Source: an uncultured Nitrososphaeraceae archaeon (GTDB lineage Archaea > Thermoproteota > Nitrososphaeria > Nitrososphaerales > Nitrososphaeraceae). Taken from it: a stretch of 64,000 bases of DNA. A model generated the notes under the pieces. It searched no databases, was not told where the DNA came from, and saw only the letters and a list, made by a program, of their open reading frames with translations. Shown piece after piece: positions 44,122 to 54,342 of this stretch. The first letter of the stretch is position 1, and every line of letters begins with the position of its first letter. The stretch lies in contig CAVSMN010000020.1 in the NCBI GenBank assembly GCA_963729045.1, positions 182,080 to 246,079 on the forward strand, written 5' to 3'. The translations under genes were made by a program, and so were the position numbers.

Positions 44122-45040
44122 TCACGTAGTTCGCTTTAAACACGTAATACTCCTTTTTTGTGCAAACATCCTCAGGGCAACGCTTAACGCCAATATGAGC
44201 AATATAAGCACCAATGCAGCACCCCAACCCTGTTCATGAGCTGCTGGATATGGTTGTGAAGCCAATCTCCAGATTCTTAAAGGTAATGCATCAACAGGGG
44301 AATTAAAGCCGCTGAAAAATAGACTTGTTCCTAAAATAGTCATTATTAATGGTGCCGTTTCACCAGCGACTCTAGATATGGCAAGTACAATGCCTGTTAA
44401 TATACCGCTTTTGGATCCCTTTATCACAATATGCCATACCACCTTCCACTTTGGAAGGCCTAGACCATATGCTGCCTCCCTTAGAGTGTTTGGTACTAGT
44501 TTCAATGTTTCTTCAGAGACCCTTGCAACAATAGGAATCATTATTATAGATAAAACAAAGGCTCCTGCCATGATTGAAAATGAGCCAAGTGTTAATACAA
44601 GTGCGATATATCCCGTAATTCCTATTACGATAGAAGGAATACCAGTCAATACATCATTAAAGAGTCTAAGGAAATATGCAAAATGATTTGCTAGAACTGG
44701 AATATTCGGATAGGTAAACCCCTGCCAGAACTCCAACAGGGGCTCCAATTAAAGAGGCAAGTCCTACAGCTATCAAAGTTCCTTGGATGGCTGGACCAAT
44801 ACCCCCATCGCCTGAACCGAATGCACCCGGAGGACTGAATAGAAACTCAAAGCTTAGAGCGCCAACACCATTCTTAAACACTTCAAACAAAATGGAGGCT
44901 AAAGGTATGATCGCAATTATTACAAAAACAAATAACAAAACGGTCATAAAATTATTAAAGACCTTTCTTTTTATGGAATTTTTCGCAATACGTTCCTGAA
45001 TGATTGATGTGTAATCTTTAGTTTTGTTGTCTTTGATCAT
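44122..45040 (-). CDS. pstA: Phosphate ABC transporter permease PstA, +1 indel near 44685
   Basis: ORFs 44666..45040 and 44122..44748 join after GVYLSEY; GIPSIVIG, LREAAYGLG and GETAP motifs. Confidence 0.92.
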
Positions 45041-46133: not shown

Positions 46134-47226
46134 TTAGTTGGTGAGTATTGGGTTTCCATTAAAAGTCAGTGATTTCAATGTTGCTTCATTGACATCAACG
46201 ACAGATTGAGGTAATGGAACATATCCCAATGATTCTGCGAACTGTTGTCCGTCAGTTACGGCCCACTCCACGAATTCAACAATTGCTTTTGCTTTTTGTT
46301 CATCTATCGATGGATTAGTGCTCAAGTCTTTATAGAGCAAAAGGTAGGAGAAACTAGAGATTGGGTAGGAATCAGGTCCTGGTGCATCTGTTATTGTTAC
46401 ATTAGACCAAGATTCTGAACCGCTAGGTAACGTAGATGCTTCTGCGCTTACTGCTGCTGCGGTAGAATTAACTGATGGCAAAATGAAATTACCCTCTTGA
46501 TTTTGTACTGCTGCATAATTCATCTGTGTTGTTAATGCATATGCTAATTCGACATATCCAATGGTATAAGGTGTTCCTTGAATTGATGCGGCCACACCTT
46601 CATTTCCTGGTGCGCCTATACCAGATGGCCATTGTACTGATTTGCCCTTACCAACAGTTTGATTCCATTCAGGACTTACTTTTGATAGATAATCAGTAAA
46701 TACAAATGTTGTACCAGAACCATCAGAACGATGGACTGTAACTATATTTTCAGAGGGCAAAGTAACACCCGGATTAAGTTCTTTTATCTTTGGATCATCC
46801 CATTTAGTGATTTTTCCTAAAAATATGTCTGCAATAACGGGACCTGTAAGATTGATAGGTGTAGTTACTTCTGGAATATTATATGCAAGGACAACAGAAC
46901 CTAGGGTTTCTGGAATGTGAACAGCACTTCCTGCTTTTTGGAATTCGGTTTCCGAAAGAGGAGCATCAGAAGCACCAAAGTCAACTGTTTTTTCAGTGAA
47001 CTGTTTAATTCCTCCACCACTCCCGATAGAAGCATAATTAAGATTAACATCAGGATTTACTTTTTGATATTCTACTCTCCAAGTATCTATTAAAGGATAT
47101 GGAAAGGTTGCTCCAGCTCCATTAATAGCAACTTGTGCATGTACCTGAATTCACATAAACTGGGACTAATAGCGATACGGCTAAAAGTGATATACCTAAT
47201 ATCCTATAGTTGATTAATTTATTCAT
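46134..47226 (-). CDS. pstS: Phosphate-binding protein PstS, +1 indel near 47149
   Basis: Frame open upstream of ORF 46134..46760 through GAGATFPYP, GSGGG and DFGASD; signal peptide from ATG 47226 in a shifted frame; RSDGSGTT. Confidence 0.93.
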
Positions 47227-47864: not shown

Positions 47865-48332
47865 TTGCGCAAGATACAAATCGCAATTGATGTAGACGGA
47901 TCACCATCGGGATACATTTCCTGGCATAACCATTTTCAAAACAAAAGCAAAATAAGAACACTAAAACCTTACAAGAAGAACGAAAGATATGGCGTTCAGA
48001 GAATGGAAATGCTAGCAGTATATTTTGCAATTTCAGATAATCTCAAAATATTTAAGACCAAGCTAAAAAAAAGAGGAAAAAGAAAAATAATAGTTATTAG
48101 AAGCGACTCAAAATCTACAATAGAACAACTCAACAAAAGGTCAAAAGTGAAGGACGAGATTATCAAGCGAGTCTACAATTCAATAATAAGAATTATAGAA
48201 AAAATATCCTGTACTCTAGTATTTGATTATTTGAGGAGAACGAGCAACAGAGCCGGAAAAATTCTAGAACTTATCAGAAAAGAAAATAGATATGGGTATT
48301 ATTTCCCTCATGTAAAAAATACTACTAGTTAG
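47865..48332 (+). CDS. RNase HI-like fold protein, very basic
   Basis: IDVDGS, RMEMLAV, IRSDS and SNRAG segments. Confidence 0.75.
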   Translation: MRKIQIAIDVDGSPSGYISWHNHFQNKSKIRTLKPYKKNERYGVQRMEMLAVYFAISDNLKIFKTKLKKRGKRKIIVIRSDSKSTIEQLNKRSKVKDEIIKRVYNSIIRIIEKISCTLVFDYLRRTSNRAGKILELIRKENRYGYYFPHVKNTTS

Positions 48333-48483: not shown

Positions 48484-48909
48484 TTATGAAAAAGTAGTAT
48501 CAAGTTTTAAGAGAACATCTTCTAAATATTCATCAGTTCTAAAATAGATATAGAGGAAGCGATCGTTTAGTTCATTTATTGGGATATATGCCAAAAAAAC
48601 ATCCTCATATAGATTAATTAGTCTGAATTCTGCATCTTCATCAATTAAATTGGATTGGAGAGATACTATACTTTTTATATTATTTGATGACAAGGTTTTA
48701 TCTTTAAAAAGTGGGTTACCATAATGGTTGGAATTTCTAAAGGAAGAACAAGTAATTTTCCTTTTTGAGAAATGGGGATTATGACGTATATTTCTTGATT
48801 TCCCTACTAGCAATTTTCCATTAGAGTCAATAATGCCAGCAAATTGTATAGAAACATCAACATGAAGTGCAGTAGTGCACAATCTATGGAGAAATTGTCT
48901 TTCTTCCAT
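48484..48909 (-). CDS. Roadblock-like hypothetical protein
   Basis: LC...DVSIQFAGIIDSNGKLL pattern. Confidence 0.65.
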   Translation of the reverse strand: MEERQFLHRLCTTALHVDVSIQFAGIIDSNGKLLVGKSRNIRHNPHFSKRKITCSSFRNSNHYGNPLFKDKTLSSNNIKSIVSLQSNLIDEDAEFRLINLYEDVFLAYIPINELNDRFLYIYFRTDEYLEDVLLKLDTTFS

Positions 48910-49599
48910 ATCCGATCTTATTCTATAATATATTAATTATTTATCTAAATGTTCACTATAGTATATGGATCGATGATTTAATGCTAAAAACGATTCTTCT
49001 GCAACCTAAATTCTAGAAGTATGATAGAGTAAGGGCTATTGTAATATCATGTAGCCTGTGAAAGTCTCATGGATATATGAATCGATATTCAACATTAATG
49101 GTCCACTTCCAAGTAGTAAAGAAAATATCGATATTATAAAACTAATGATCCAAATATATTGAGAATAATTTTTCAAAAGCATCAATAATTGATTATGTAA
49201 CTTGTTGATCTTGATCAATAAATTGGAGATTTCATTCTTGGTCTTGTCCAAAATGGTTTGGAATTACAACCATAATATCAATAAATTAGTTTTCGATAGA
49301 GTATATTACGATCATTTTCTCTTATTTCACCTAACAAGTTGTTTTCTTCAGTTAGTATAAGATAGATTTCATACGACTTAAACTATTGATTGATTTTCAA
49401 AATGTAATAACGTTTAACAATGAGGTCACTTATTCCCTATCATTTTATTTCTCCTCCAACATTTTTTATAGTTTCGTTACTTGTTCGGATCTATTAACAC
49501 TATTAGAATATCAATATCATGAATTGATAGTATTTGAGTTCATGATTCTTTTTTTATTTACAATATTCATCTATATTGAAAACATAAATTAAATCGAAA

Positions 49600-49737
49600 T
49601 GGAAATAGGATAGTCTGACGACCCGTTTGCGAGATGAGGTCCTATCCTATTTCCACAAGATCATCGCGTAGTTTGAGTAAGATGAGTATACAAGGAATAG
49701 GATATATCCATATCCTATATTATCTAAATGAAATATT
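49600..49737 (-). ncRNA. Hairpin element A (putative small RNA with promoter-like motif)
   Basis: 14-bp perfect stem TGGAAATAGGATAG/CTATCCTATTTCCA, 28-nt loop; TATCTAAATGAAAT motif at 49721; strand inferred. Confidence 0.5.
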
Positions 49738-50041
49738 AACACCGAAAACTTGTTTTCTTATATGTAGGTTGTTATGCCTAAATTAGGTACGCAATTGCAC
49801 ACATATACATGCATGACCTTTCGGTTTTGTTTTTAACCCGCGTATGATGGATTAGTAAGAAAATTGCATCATTATATTACATAAAATATTGCCAGATACT
49901 ACTTTTTAATATTGTTACCACATCACTATATAATGAATTTGGTATTTTATTATTAAATAACGTCAATAGAAATAATAACAAGATTCCTTGAATAATAAGG
50001 AATAATTTAATATAAGACACATCATCTCATAGAAATCATAG

Positions 50042-50197
50042 ATTAGAAATAGGATAGTAAATAGAGTGGGGACAGATCGAGATAACAAACACTCTATATC
50101 CTATCCTAATACTGGAGGAGGCATGAGCCGGTTGAACCAGAGATCACCTATTCTGCAAATCTGTTTTTATTTTTATACTATAGTATCTAAATGAAAT
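50042..50197 (-). ncRNA. Hairpin element B
   Basis: ATTAGAAATAGGATAG...TATCCTATCCTAAT with inner ATAGAGTG/CACTCTAT; same motif at 50184. Confidence 0.5.
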
Positions 50198-50430
50198 CAG
50201 TTCAAAAGGCAATCCCCTCTATAAATCATAATTTGTCTTGATCAATTCAAAGACGGAGTGAACTTCACGGTTTCTTTCTTTTAGATGACTACCATTCGAT
50301 ATTTAGGTGGTCCGACGATTATTGTTGATGAAAAATTCAATACAAAGACTTGATTAAGAATGATCCCTTATTAAAGGTCATATTATTACTTCAAAATATT
50401 ATAATATTCTTGAAAGTCATCAGGTGAATT

Positions 50431-51249
50431 TCAAACTATGATGAATGAATATATTAATAATATTGCTCCTAGTCCTAAACAGTAATATGCGAAATAGTAA
50501 AGCTTTCCTCTGTTTATGATATTTATTAACAGTTTGATTGTTAAATACCCAATTATTGCGGATGATAAAAATCCAACCATATAAGAAGAAAAGGGGATTT
50601 CCCCTATCGCAGATAGCTGTGTAGTATCCATTAGAACAAAATCAAATACAGAGCCACCTACAATGGCTGGAATGGATAACAGGAATGAAAACCTGACCAA
50701 TTGAGTATGATCAATTTGTCTTATCATTCCTAAAGAAATTGTAATACCGCTTCGAGAAATGCTTGAGAATACAGAGAATCCCTGAGCTATTCCGATTAAT
50801 ACAGCATCAATCTTACTGATATCTCTGGAACCTTTCTTGAAATATTTAGTGATATAAATGAATATACCGCTTATCAGAAATCCTATAGATAATAGAAAGA
50901 AATCATAAAATGAAAATTCGAAGAAGGACTTTAGTGCAAATGCGATAATTGCAGTTGGAATGGTTCCAATTATGATAAGCATCAATAGTTTTCTATATTC
51001 TTTGACAGCTTGCAAAGACATGGAGCGAGAATAGAAAACAGACCTGAAAATCATTAACAAATCAGTTCGATAAAACCCTATGAGACCTGCTAGAGTTCCT
51101 ATATGAAGAATCAAATCAAAGAAAACAGGTACATGAATATTAAGTAATAATTGGGTTAGTGCTAGATGTCCTGAGCTAGATATTGGCAACCACTCAGTTA
51201 TTCCTTGCACGATTCCCAAAATTAAAGATTGAACGATATCCACCGTCAT
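50431..51249 (-). CDS. uppP: Undecaprenyl/polyprenyl-diphosphate phosphatase
   Basis: QGITEWLPISSSGHL, ISRSG and FSFLLSIP motifs. Confidence 0.93.
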   Translation of the reverse strand: MTVDIVQSLILGIVQGITEWLPISSSGHLALTQLLLNIHVPVFFDLILHIGTLAGLIGFYRTDLLMIFRSVFYSRSMSLQAVKEYRKLLMLIIIGTIPTAIIAFALKSFFEFSFYDFFLLSIGFLISGIFIYITKYFKKGSRDISKIDAVLIGIAQGFSVFSSISRSGITISLGMIRQIDHTQLVRFSFLLSIPAIVGGSVFDFVLMDTTQLSAIGEIPFSSYMVGFLSSAIIGYLTIKLLINIINRGKLYYFAYYCLGLGAILLIYSFIIV

Positions 51250-51355
51250 TTTTTATCTACTGGGTGATAGTGATTACTCATTTGCTATAAAATGTTTACA
51301 TTATCCACAATACATTATCGCCAAAAATAAATAATTCTTTGACAACGATTTGTAC

Positions 51356-52181
51356 ATGGGTGAAAAGATTCTAGTTACCGGGGCTACCGGTTCTCTGGGA
51401 AGTGAAGTTGTAAAGCAGCTCTAAAAGACACCTCAGATATCAATATTAGGGCAGCAATTCATTCATTTGAAAATATAGGCAAAGTACGATAACCAGGAGT
51501 TGAGGTAATACAAATTGACTACCGCTGATCATGAAGTTAATTTGGTTAATGAGACAAAAAAATGTGGAGTAAGTCTTATAGTAAAGCAACCGTAATGAGG
51601 GCCCGATTTGAAGGCAGACATAAGAACAATGAGATTGCATCGTCAAGCAGAAAAGATAATTGAAGAATCAGGAATTGGATATATTTTTCTGAGTCCAAAT
51701 GAATTCATGCAGAATTTCATAAATTTTCATAGCCCGTCGATTAAGAGCAATAATGTATTCTACTTACCAGCGGGCCACTCGATGGTCAGTATCTTGGCGT
51801 TTGTGATTTTGTAGTTGTAGCGGTGAAAGCACGTGGTCAAAATAGACTTGCAAAGTATCACAATAAAACAACGATGCTAACAAGACCCGGAACCCGGTCA
51901 TGTGACAGAATGGTCGAATACTTTCTGAAGTAACAAATGAAAAAATAGAATAATTTGATACTTCAGATGACGAGGCCAGAGGAGGAATGAAAGAAATTGG
52001 TATGGATGATCTGCATGTCGATGCTATTTTGGAATTAAATAGCTATTTTAGAAAAGGACACGCTTCACAGGTTTCTCCTGCAGTAGAAGAGGTAACGGGT
52101 ATTAGACTTACATCATTTAATCAATTTGCAAGAGATTATGCGGAATTTTTTAGACAATATTGGAATCGAACTGAGAAATAA
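51356..52181 (+). pseudogene. NmrA/atypical SDR family pseudogene
   Basis: MGEKILVTGATGSLGSEVVKQL* then several stops and shifts; fragments HRQAEKIIEESGI..PNEFMQN and VEEVTG..SFNQFARD. Confidence 0.85.
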
Positions 52182-52439
52182 TAAGAATTCATTTTGATAT
52201 GTTTTAAAGATTTTTATATATTCTATAAAAACTCTAGTAAGAAGAATCAACTATCAAGCAATTCTCGATTGTCAAAACTTCATAATCATTTTAATGTAGA
52301 ATGTCATAAATATCTTTTATTAGATTTATCCTTATACTATACAATCTATAAATAAAATATACACAAGATATTTTTGATATATTGTCGTCGTTGAAGTACA
52401 GTAATATATTTTACACGACCCAAATGACGACCATTTCGC

Positions 52440-52490
52440 GATGGGGTAGGATACAGCAGTGCCAATGTCATTACTCAATTCTACCCCATC
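52440..52490. ncRNA. Hairpin element D
   Basis: GATGGGGTAG(GATA).../CTACCCCATC, 10-bp perfect stem related to elements A-C. Confidence 0.4.
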
Positions 52491-52904
52491 TTCTCTTCTC
52501 AAATATATTCGAAGAGAAAATACTATATTAAATATTATATGACAAAATAAGAGTTGTTACTGTAAACAGTATTAATTTGAATCCGGGTTTAATTTTTGGA
52601 TAGAATCGCAATTATTATTAGACCTAAATAATTTGTCAGTTAGGGCATTTTTTAGCTCAGCATTGTAATCCGAAGAGATATCTTGTATTAGTTCAGTATC
52701 ATAATTGTTATTTTAAATTGTCCGCTATCTAAGTTTTAATAAAGCGTCTCATGTTTCTCAGGGTGCATTTAATATTTGGCTGGTATATTGCTGGCTGTTT
52801 CTACATCTCTTATCTGATTAAATTTATTGCTAATAATCAAATGCAATGGCGTCTAGTAGCATGGCATTTATCCTTTGAAGCTAAATAGTTCATACTGTGA
52901 TAAC

Positions 52905-53060
52905 ATTGGGATAGGGATAGATAGAATAAAGATAGTAATGCAATAAAATCCATCCTCTTTTCCTATCCCAATAACAAATCTTTTGCAAATTTAACAGTGC
53001 TTTATTGTTAGTAGGTAGTATTGCTTTTATCTTTATACTATGATATATAAATGAAATATT
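52905..53060 (-). ncRNA. Hairpin element C
   Basis: ATTGGGATAGG.../CCTATCCCAAT; TATATAAATGAAATATT motif at 53044. Confidence 0.5.
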
Positions 53061-53352
53061 CGGAATCTTTCAGGTGTTTCATTATCCTGCGTTGTCTACT
53101 TGTTCCTAATAACGTATTGAACCCCAATGCATTTGATATTCTTGCTAATAATCATTTATCTTGGTAGTTTCTCAACTTCAACCATCTAGTAATATTGAGG
53201 CAAGAATATGAGATAAACATGTTTTTAAGATCCAAACTGTAATAGAACTCAGCTAGTTTTGATTTAAAGTAGACATTAATGATGTATACTGATCTCTATA
53301 CATAGAACATATTTTTAATAAAGAAAGAGATGGGGTTAAAAATCATCAAATA

Positions 53353-53508
53353 TTATTTAAGGTTATAATTGTACTGATTACAATTACATCCAAGTTTCAT
53401 GCATGGGTGAGTAGCATTATCCTGGTGCTCATAATATAGATGATCTTCTTTTGTATGAAAACAATTCATACATGGTTTATATAGATCAGCGCTGTTTCTA
53501 CTGGCCAT
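53353..53508 (-). CDS. Small Cys/His-rich putative zinc-binding protein (51 aa)
   Basis: ATG at 53508; CMNCFHTKEDH...CMKLGCNC. Confidence 0.65.
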   Translation of the reverse strand: MASRNSADLYKPCMNCFHTKEDHLYYEHQDNATHPCMKLGCNCNQYNYNLK

Positions 53509-54342
53509 AGTCTTTATCAATATAGATAACCAAAATGTCAATAGATGTCAATCTAATATAATAGTTATGACAATTCCAATGAAAAACTTTTTGATAATTC
53601 GAGGAGTCGAAGAGCAAATTCCCGAGATTTTAGGTTTGGATCAGACGAAAATTCTTGTTTTATAGCTATTGTCGAGAATGTCTAGGCTGCTGATTGATTG
53701 ATCAGAGTGGAATAAAATAAAAATTATTAGTCTATTCAAACTTTACAATTGCATAATGCTATAACGACTAAGTTAATTATAGTCTTACAATGAGAACCAA
53801 CATTTTCTCTAGATTTGATTTTGCCTACAACCAAAAAAAAATTATTGAATAATAGCAATACATACAACATATGGGGTTATTTTGATATCCTCTCCCTCTA
53901 CATTAATTGTCCAAGTGTTATTTAGTATATTGGGTATACTTTCGATTTCATTTATTTACCTATAATTGTCATCCAAAGTATGGGAAATCTGAGGTTCTAT
54001 CACATTATGATCTATCAAAGTTCTCTTCCGAGTTCTACCTTTCAGAGAAGCTAACGATGAGTAGGTTTATCAAACAATACAATGTTTACTAAACTCGACA
54101 TCAAAATCAGAATGTTATTTAGTTAATTAAAAAGATTCCTGAACATTCTCAAATATGAGGACTATAGAGAAACTCATAGCAGATCTTATGAGATAGATTT
54201 CCGACAGAATTCATCAGAGACTTGTATTATGTCTGCCATAGTACCTGTAGTGCATGAAATTAGTAATTATTTGTATATTAGTTACAATTTCTGATAGTTT
54301 CATTATGAAAGCAGTCTTTTATTTTATTTTTCCTAATTAAAA

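Follow-up and report, generated by a model that had tools for sequence, protein, structure and literature searches.

Trans-acting small RNAs (sRNAs) encoded in intergenic regions are known in the archaea Methanosarcina, Haloferax, and Sulfolobus. In the literature searched, no small RNA was found described for Nitrosocosmicus or other ammonia-oxidizing archaea, nor was a described small-RNA family found for the Nitrososphaeria. The subject of this report is a group of hairpin-bearing intergenic units in a 64,000-nucleotide (nt) stretch of DNA (the window; contig CAVSMN010000020.1, positions 182,080 to 246,079) from the 2.85-Mb genome of Candidatus Nitrosocosmicus, a soil ammonia-oxidizing archaeon. 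Three paralogous units of about 110 to 130 bases, A, B, and C, lie on the minus strand of the window, and units in this genome and its relatives fall into seven paralog types (A, B, C, E, F, G, and H). Judged from their sequences, A, B, and C are probably (at a rough probability of 0.58) a lineage-specific family of sibling, independently transcribed small noncoding RNA genes.

The closest analogy to such an arrangement is offered by the sibling sRNA families of bacteria, for example, LhrC1-5 of Listeria monocytogenes, in which one genome carries several homologous sRNA genes (PMC5880928). In these sRNAs (PMC5880928), single-stranded or loop regions that differ or pair with targets are combined with a terminal hairpin, an organization to which the units described here bear a likeness. 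The enrichment of CCUC in the units (26 occurrences versus 7.6 expected, carried by types A, B, and F) is likewise reminiscent of the CU-rich regions of LhrC. Unlike LhrC, the units are archaeal, with a promoter composed of a TATA box and a transcription factor B recognition element (BRE) and with no Hfq-type or Rho-independent terminator logic, and what the paralogs share is limited to the promoter and the stem core, to the exclusion of the pairing regions. Ribosome-binding sites are also unlikely to be blocked here, because this genome is nearly without a Shine-Dalgarno signal (a peak of 4% of 711 starts); for the same reason an anti-Shine-Dalgarno mimic was rejected despite the CCUC enrichment. 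Compared with the intergenic sRNAs of other archaea, the units would similarly be separate genes, about 100 nt long, each with a TATA promoter of its own and an end rich in U, but a tandem array of several types with a near-invariant promoter is unusual.

Read along the minus strand, each unit consists of a promoter block, a type-specific leader of about 45 nt, a lower stem with the core GGAUAG/CUAUCC, a type-specific inner part, and often a U-run. The inner part or loop measures 27 to 40 nt in most units and 20 to 52 nt overall in the seven types, and the spacing between hairpin and promoter motif is 58 to 71 nt across all types, with unrelated sequence in between. A covariance model built first from type A and then rebuilt on 18 units of all types (model R2) scored unit A (49583 to 49742, minus strand, from promoter through leader and hairpin to a U-rich tail) at 150.3 bits (E = 9e-27), unit B (50028 to 50205, minus strand) at 93.2 bits, and unit C (52889 to 53065, minus strand) at 50.0 bits (E = 3e-8), and it found exactly these three units in this genome. 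Across 34 genomes of the genus (G000 denotes this genome and other G numbers its relatives), R2 detected 33 units in 9 genomes and none in the other 25, and searching with a strict pattern of promoter plus stem yielded 22 matches, in 8 of the 34, and 0 with the reversed-pattern control. Orthologs of unit A are present in G004, G002, G032, G033, G035, and G031, and those of unit C in G002 and G037; five units were counted in G032, a closed genome. Most units lie within the same array around the gene for undecaprenyl-diphosphatase; type H is found elsewhere. A scan of metagenomes with the promoter-plus-stem pattern returned at least 119 stretches, and 2 of the 80 loci listed from it were clearly member-like (107 and 94 bits), while 9 further loci among those 80 scored 24 to 43 bits, which the pattern preselection could explain; the scan added no power.

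The initial annotation had proposed an undescribed family of RNAs of about 110 nt with a constant scaffold and mutually unrelated loops. Much of this proposal survived, namely, homologous units of about 110 to 130 nt, covarying stems, a minus-strand promoter, and loops that are type specific across the family; the membership of a fourth hairpin, D, did not. The covariance-model scan extended the family to related genomes. No Rfam 15 family matched at its gathering threshold anywhere in the window. At E ≤ 10 over positions 48500 to 53500, Rfam gave four weak matches, and the sole one on a hairpin was sno_ncR4, at 18.9 bits versus a threshold of 103.

That match raises the guide RNAs, with which the units share a constant scaffold around a variable, guide-like inner sequence. 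Box C/D sRNAs carry C (RUGAUGA) and D (CUGA) boxes beside a terminal stem and form a kink-turn (K-turn), and H/ACA sRNAs have a two-sided single-stranded pocket, a K-turn or K-loop, and an ACA after the stem. Both classes were rejected. The loop of unit A contains CUGA and GAUGA only when read on the plus strand, and their order there is wrong; the other types have neither, and 18.9 bits was also the best Rfam box C/D score. For H/ACA, reading of the folds showed a one-sided bulge and no ACA after the minus-strand stem. Tandem G·A pairs of a K-turn could be drawn in type A alone, and then with a 6-nt loop, the other types being without them.

The left arms of all four hairpins picked out in the initial annotation were recovered in place, and the hairpins and the motif shared among them are real, far beyond chance. 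Hairpin A pairs 49600 to 49613 with 49642 to 49655 (14 of 14 base pairs [bp], 28-nt loop), and its minus-strand fold (49600 to 49655) places above this 14-bp lower stem a 5-bp upper stem (GACCU/GGGUC), an apical loop of 12 nt, and a 3'-side bulge of 6 nt; a U·G pair in the upper stem is replaced by U-A in G002, G035, and G031. Hairpin C (52905 to 52921 with 52956 to 52972) is 88% paired, with 11 perfect bp formed by 52905 to 52915 and 52962 to 52972. Hairpin B is present but more irregular than had been described, with an outer stem (50050 to 50057 with 50101 to 50108) and an inner stem (50061 to 50068 with 50090 to 50097) separated by a 3-by-3 internal loop. Genome-wide, only 18 of 5955 perfect inverted repeats were 14 bp or longer, and the genome-wide inverted-repeat search placed hairpins with the family stem core at this locus only. 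Shuffle z-scores of the single folds of B and C were modest (−1.3 to −2.0).

Hairpin D (52440 to 52490, orientation uncertain), in which 52440 to 52464 faces 52466 to 52490 with 76% pairing and 10 perfect bp, has a similar stem motif without support from the model. Its best R2 match was on the plus strand (52404 to 52509, 25.4 bits, versus 8.8 bits on the minus strand), and the family motif is missing at the family distance to its right. Both G002 and G037 retain D, the latter with a T·C mismatch. R2 does not accept D, which leaves three members here instead of four, and D is treated as a look-alike or a degenerate relative. Left of D, a promoter-only copy of the motif (52296 to 52366, minus strand) has no hairpin behind it; R2 matches its promoter part alone (29 bits), 2 nt being inserted within the TATA region. 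A weaker copy of the 36-nt motif described below falls at 52325 to 52360. The block from 52314 to 52417 is also conserved in G014 and G008, where an open reading frame (ORF) of 268 residues follows on the opposite strand, and the block may therefore have a different, or a two-way, promoter role.

Comparison of G000 with G002 gave identities of 98 to 100% for the promoter, 88 to 92% for the hairpin, and 85 to 96% for the leader, versus 66 to 84% for the flanks. The promoter segment of unit A was 98 to 100% identical among G000, G004, and G002, and for unit B, G004 and G002 showed 100% identity in the promoter and 96% in the leader. These identities show purifying selection on the units when compared with the flanks. 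Loops were more conserved than leaders in types A, F, G, and H (90 to 97% versus 75 to 88%) and less conserved than leaders in types B, C, and E. Covariation of the stems, asserted earlier from compensatory changes between the hairpins, held across the family: in an alignment fitted to the model, 92.8% of cells were paired, versus 83.3% in shuffled versions (0 of 500 reached the observed value), both-side changes occurred at 10 pairs, versus 4.9 in shuffles (0 of 500), and slid controls were 41 to 51% paired. A stand-alone archaeal sRNA gene would be expected to combine conservation above its flanks with a covarying structure, and both were found. The units are noncoding, with reading frames that differ between units and 1-nt indels between orthologs; small peptides were rejected as their products because frames are not conserved and orthologs carry these indels.

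The shared 36-nt motif is present in three copies (49699 to 49734, 50162 to 50197, and 53022 to 53057), which lie 65, 75, and 71 nt to the right of hairpins A, B, and C, respectively, as the earlier figure of about 65 to 75 nt implied; the resemblance between B and C, put then at about 30 bp, amounts to 86% over the 36 nt. The 14-nt end of the motif, TATMTAAATGAAAT, has three copies in the 2.85-Mb genome, all at this locus and on one strand, compared to about 0.6 expected from composition. On the minus strand the promoter-like block reads ATTTCATTTAGATA-N-TATAGTATAA-N-GATAAAA, and the invariant columns across 28 aligned units are TTTCAT.TA.AT. The promoter core of unit A (49721 to 49734, minus strand) reads ATTTCATTTAGATA, with its TATA box at 49721 to 49728; the corresponding minus-strand TATA boxes of units B and C lie at 50184 to 50191 and at 53044 to 53051, the latter reading TTTATATA. 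An orientation reference is provided by the conserved hypothetical protein gene at 48484 to 48909 (minus strand), which has, as previously noticed, TTTAGATA as its TATA box (48943 to 48950, minus strand), 34 nt upstream of the ATG; seven other loci have also kept this TTTAGATA. The tRNA genes of this genome are preceded by similar TATA boxes, whose ends lie about 25 to 30 nt upstream. Judged by sequence, each unit would have what a stand-alone archaeal sRNA gene needs, a promoter of its own with a TATA box and an adjoining upstream element at the right distance and in the right orientation.

Two further observations concern the promoter of unit B. Positions 50161 to 50200 contain a 23-nt near-palindrome centered on CTATAG that is 83% complementary and has TATA-like halves in both directions. 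In addition, contigs from two soil or rhizosphere DNA runs match only the 33 nt from 50165 to 50197, the promoter core, and diverge on both sides; the occurrence of this core in unlike flanks shows that related soil organisms carry further units in other contexts.

Three clues, in agreement with the earlier reading of the promoter, point to the minus strand: the orientation of the TATA box, the U-runs, and an excess of G·U mismatches. The neighboring minus-strand gene (48484 to 48909) has the same TTTAGATA at the expected distance. On the minus strand, 15 of 28 units had a TTTT within 24 nt of the hairpin 3' end, compared with 3 of 28 for the plus strand and a fraction of 0.20 of background windows; the minus-strand U-runs were in types A, E, F, and G. 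The hairpin likely doubles as the 3' end; a poly-U stretch is needed for archaeal transcription termination (PMC7289017). In structure-blind, per-type alignments of these related units, read on the minus strand, G·U accounted for 12 distinct states of stem mismatch and A·C for 4 (P = 0.04), and in the model-fitted alignment the two occupied 19 and 2 cells.

The opposite orientation, in which the motif would be a plus-strand promoter (TTTAT..TTATAC) and the hairpin the end structure of a preceding plus-strand transcript, is quite improbable. The left half of the motif is indeed TATA-like on the plus strand, but the invariant part is the minus-strand ATTTCATTTAGAT, and the plus-strand TATA-like half is replaced in type A. 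In G014 and G008, the related block left of D precedes a gene on the plus strand; the best R2 placement of D is likewise in the plus orientation, and folding is often slightly better for the antisense strand of the units. Set against this, no plus-strand gene or conserved sequence follows A, conservation dropping to the right of 49745, a U-run follows the hairpin in just 3 of 28 units when they are read in this direction, and the G·U bias favors the minus strand.

The same G·U bias bears on whether the hairpins act as RNA at all. At the DNA level, palindrome and promoter together could form a recombination or cassette junction, like the promoter-stem-loop joints of T4-type phages or integron attC sites, or the palindrome could bind a protein, with pairing kept in the DNA. 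We consider this unlikely: a mismatch bias toward G·U on one strand is not expected from DNA pairing, and orthologs conserve leaders and loops. The array does vary in content among close relatives, with 49034 to 50215 (which holds A and B) absent from G014, 51512 to 52308 missing in G002 and G014, and types E, F, and G occurring elsewhere. About 10 nt separate the deletion edge at 50215 from the upstream boundary of the B promoter, and the promoter motif is itself near-palindromic; however, other indel edges (49034 to 49140 and 49506 to 49532) fall off the unit borders, and no recombinase or integrase family turned up among the 19 ORFs scanned in 20 kb around the locus.

Of the systems with which a DNA element could be compared, the promoter-stem-loop cassette joints (PeSL) of T4-type phages also have a hairpin recurring together with a promoter at the edges of variable stretches of DNA. 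The units differ from them in being chromosomal, not viral, and in having the promoter precede the hairpin in the direction of transcription, about 45 nt apart with no gene between; their strand-biased G·U pairs also point to RNA. Integron attC sites have a nearby integrase and R''/R' core sites (RYYYAAC/GTTRRRY). An attC or cassette array was rejected, with no recombinase among the 19 ORFs scanned and no core sites seen on reading the arms. Replication-origin boxes were dropped as well, since the loops are not AT-rich and no Orc1/Cdc6 gene was found among the same 19 ORFs.

The initial annotation had named decayed miniature inverted-repeat transposable elements (MITEs) as its alternative, with the hairpin arms as the terminal inverted repeats of these or another small mobile element. 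The likeness lies in short inverted repeats that have a common core and are present or absent among relatives. In other respects the units did not behave as MITEs, and this explanation is very improbable. There are three copies genome-wide, all within one 3.5-kb stretch and in one orientation, instead of dispersed copies, and the stem core ATAGGATAG is not enriched (32 occurrences genome-wide versus 36 expected from composition). In each copy a promoter stands beyond the presumed repeats, at a constant distance from them. What G014 lacks was lost in a deletion of 1.2 kb, with no excision at the arms, and no precise empty site was found; reading of the flanks, with no systematic search, revealed no target-site duplication.

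The array also has a more distant counterpart. In G015, G006, and G017, three further and more distant Nitrosocosmicus species, a diverged unit occupies the same place, the spacer between the diphosphatase gene and the homolog of ORF-141, although the spacer around it is barely alignable. Its TATA-like block is TTTTTATAGTATAATAA, its leader contains AATCTAGAATCCAC, and its stem of 12 to 15 bp (AAAUAGAGAUGG/CCAUCUCUAUUU) has as its eighth pair G-C, G·U, or U·U across the three species. An apical extension covaries (GGAG/CUCC versus GGAAU/AUUCC) and is followed by five U residues. The inner stem of B is homologous to the stem of the diverged unit, which makes B the ortholog of that unit, with one outer stem added. 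When searched for as a pattern, the diverged form matched without mismatch only in G015, G006, and G017, with a possible fourth case at three mismatches. In the three species, the diverged series of promoter, leader, hairpin, and U5 was seen at about 1100 to 1260 of L008 and in L006, L007, L075, and L076, and it is missing or unrecognizable in an N. agrestis-like locus.

In G015, G006, and G017, about 75 nt separate the end of the diverged unit from the TATA box of the ORF-141 homolog, an arrangement that would suit a cis-acting role. Each unit would then act as a short upstream transcription unit or as an attenuator, adjusting expression of the gene that comes next on its strand (the ORF at 48484 to 48909 or the diphosphatase gene at 50431 to 51249) by premature termination or transcriptional interference, with no diffusible RNA. 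All units are on the strand of the flanking genes, and five genomes conserve the promoter-only copy that precedes the diphosphatase gene. The downstream genes, however, carry their own conserved promoters between unit and gene; units stand consecutively in arrays without intervening genes (G then E; B then A); type H stands alone, with no ORF of at least 70 amino acids behind it; and the distance from unit A to the gene ranges from about 200 to 690 nt among close relatives. We consider cis action rather unlikely.

For A, B, and C as independently transcribed sRNA genes, the following course is proposed; in it we infer transcription, the RNA ends, and a regulatory role. Each unit would be transcribed from its own strong archaeal promoter, a TATA box (TTTAGATA or TTTATATA) preceded by ATTTCA, with a start about 24 nt downstream of the TATA box. 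The transcript would pass through the type-specific, mostly unpaired leader of about 45 nt and end at or just past the stable hairpin, with its GGAUAG/CUAUCC lower-stem core and type-specific inner loop and, in four of the seven types, a U-run after it. The resulting RNAs of about 105 to 130 nt would most likely act in trans, pairing with mRNAs by leader or loop.

Searches for pairing partners bore on the last step. The earlier suggestion of a guide or antisense loop did not gain support, with no conserved target found and the loop less conserved than the leader in three of seven types. The one notable match was that of the leader of C, which is complementary over 20 of 21 nt to codons 2 to 8 of a gene for a secreted protein (contig C12, from position 47994; E = 0.016), and the similarity stops sharply at 21 nt; for A and B, nothing beyond 15 nt of complementarity to the genome was found. 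The gene matched by C (C12, 47994 to 48446, plus strand) encodes a small secreted repeat protein with a signal-like N terminus and GQSQ/NVQNQENEGNNVA-type repeats, has dozens of paralogs, and belongs to no Pfam family. An RNAduplex target search over 2389 ORF starts was discarded, as it yielded long, unrealistic duplexes and no outlier, and BLAST of the G and E units of G032 against their own genome gave chance-level matches only (best antisense match, E = 0.08). A further idea, which we regard as unlikely, is that the array is a set of diversifying sibling antisense RNAs under one shared promoter or regulatory input, with leaders or loops each addressing different members of this archaeon's very large family of small secreted repeat proteins and new specificities arising by local duplication; the 20/21 match of the C leader would then be a young or decaying example.

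Several points weigh against the reading of A, B, and C as sRNA genes. The complementarity of the C leader drops to 18 of 21 nt in G002 and 14 of 21 in G037 and so is not conserved pairing. In types B, C, and H the hairpin is not followed by four consecutive U residues. The G·U excess is modest, and its counts, taken from related units, are not independent. Whole-unit folding energy was better for the antisense strand in 19 of 29 units and gave no support to the minus strand. The alignment used for counting pairs was itself adjusted to the structure, and two of its rows are an antisense match and a chance match, neither of them a unit. Finally, among the contigs of two runs, one a metatranscriptome and the other only guessed to be RNA, none could be attributed to RNA from a unit, a result that is uninformative either way. 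Contigs of the metatranscriptome run cover the ORF at 48484 to 48909 and the diphosphatase gene, the units have no usable coverage, one contig of the run guessed to be RNA spans unit A plus flanking DNA, and one 174-nt contig of an RNA run shares only 18 to 19 nt.

The genes around the locus are an ordinary chromosomal set. The surroundings of the units hold, besides the conserved hypothetical gene (48484 to 48909, minus strand) and the undecaprenyl-diphosphatase gene (50431 to 51249, minus strand), a phosphate-transport operon, an RNase H-like ORF, and NUDIX and MgtC genes. One permease of this phosphate-transport operon is represented by two ORFs that overlap (44122 to 45040, minus strand), and the binding-protein ORF (46134 to 46760, minus strand) is matched by its Pfam model in the C-terminal half only; frameshifts or wrongly chosen starts may account for both. 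A broken NmrA/SDR-like gene at 51350 to 52181 (plus strand) starts with MGEKILVTGATGSLGSEVVKQL and continues with stops and frame changes, as judged from the translation only, and the stretch from 51512 to 52308 is missing in G008 as well as in G002 and G014. To the right of unit C, a Cys/His-rich ORF of 62 residues (53353 to 53541, minus strand) has no Pfam family, and the DNA from 53256 to 53644 is 83 to 86% conserved in G032 and G033.

Soil nitrification is driven by ammonia-oxidizing archaea, and their posttranscriptional regulation is almost unstudied. The claim made here is modest, the family being limited to part of one genus. If the units are transcribed, they would be the first candidate sRNA family for ammonia-oxidizing archaea, and their highly conserved promoter of about 40 bp would be usable as a reference or an expression tool. 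They would also offer a natural case of sRNA genes multiplying and diverging in place, with the stems kept through compensatory change.

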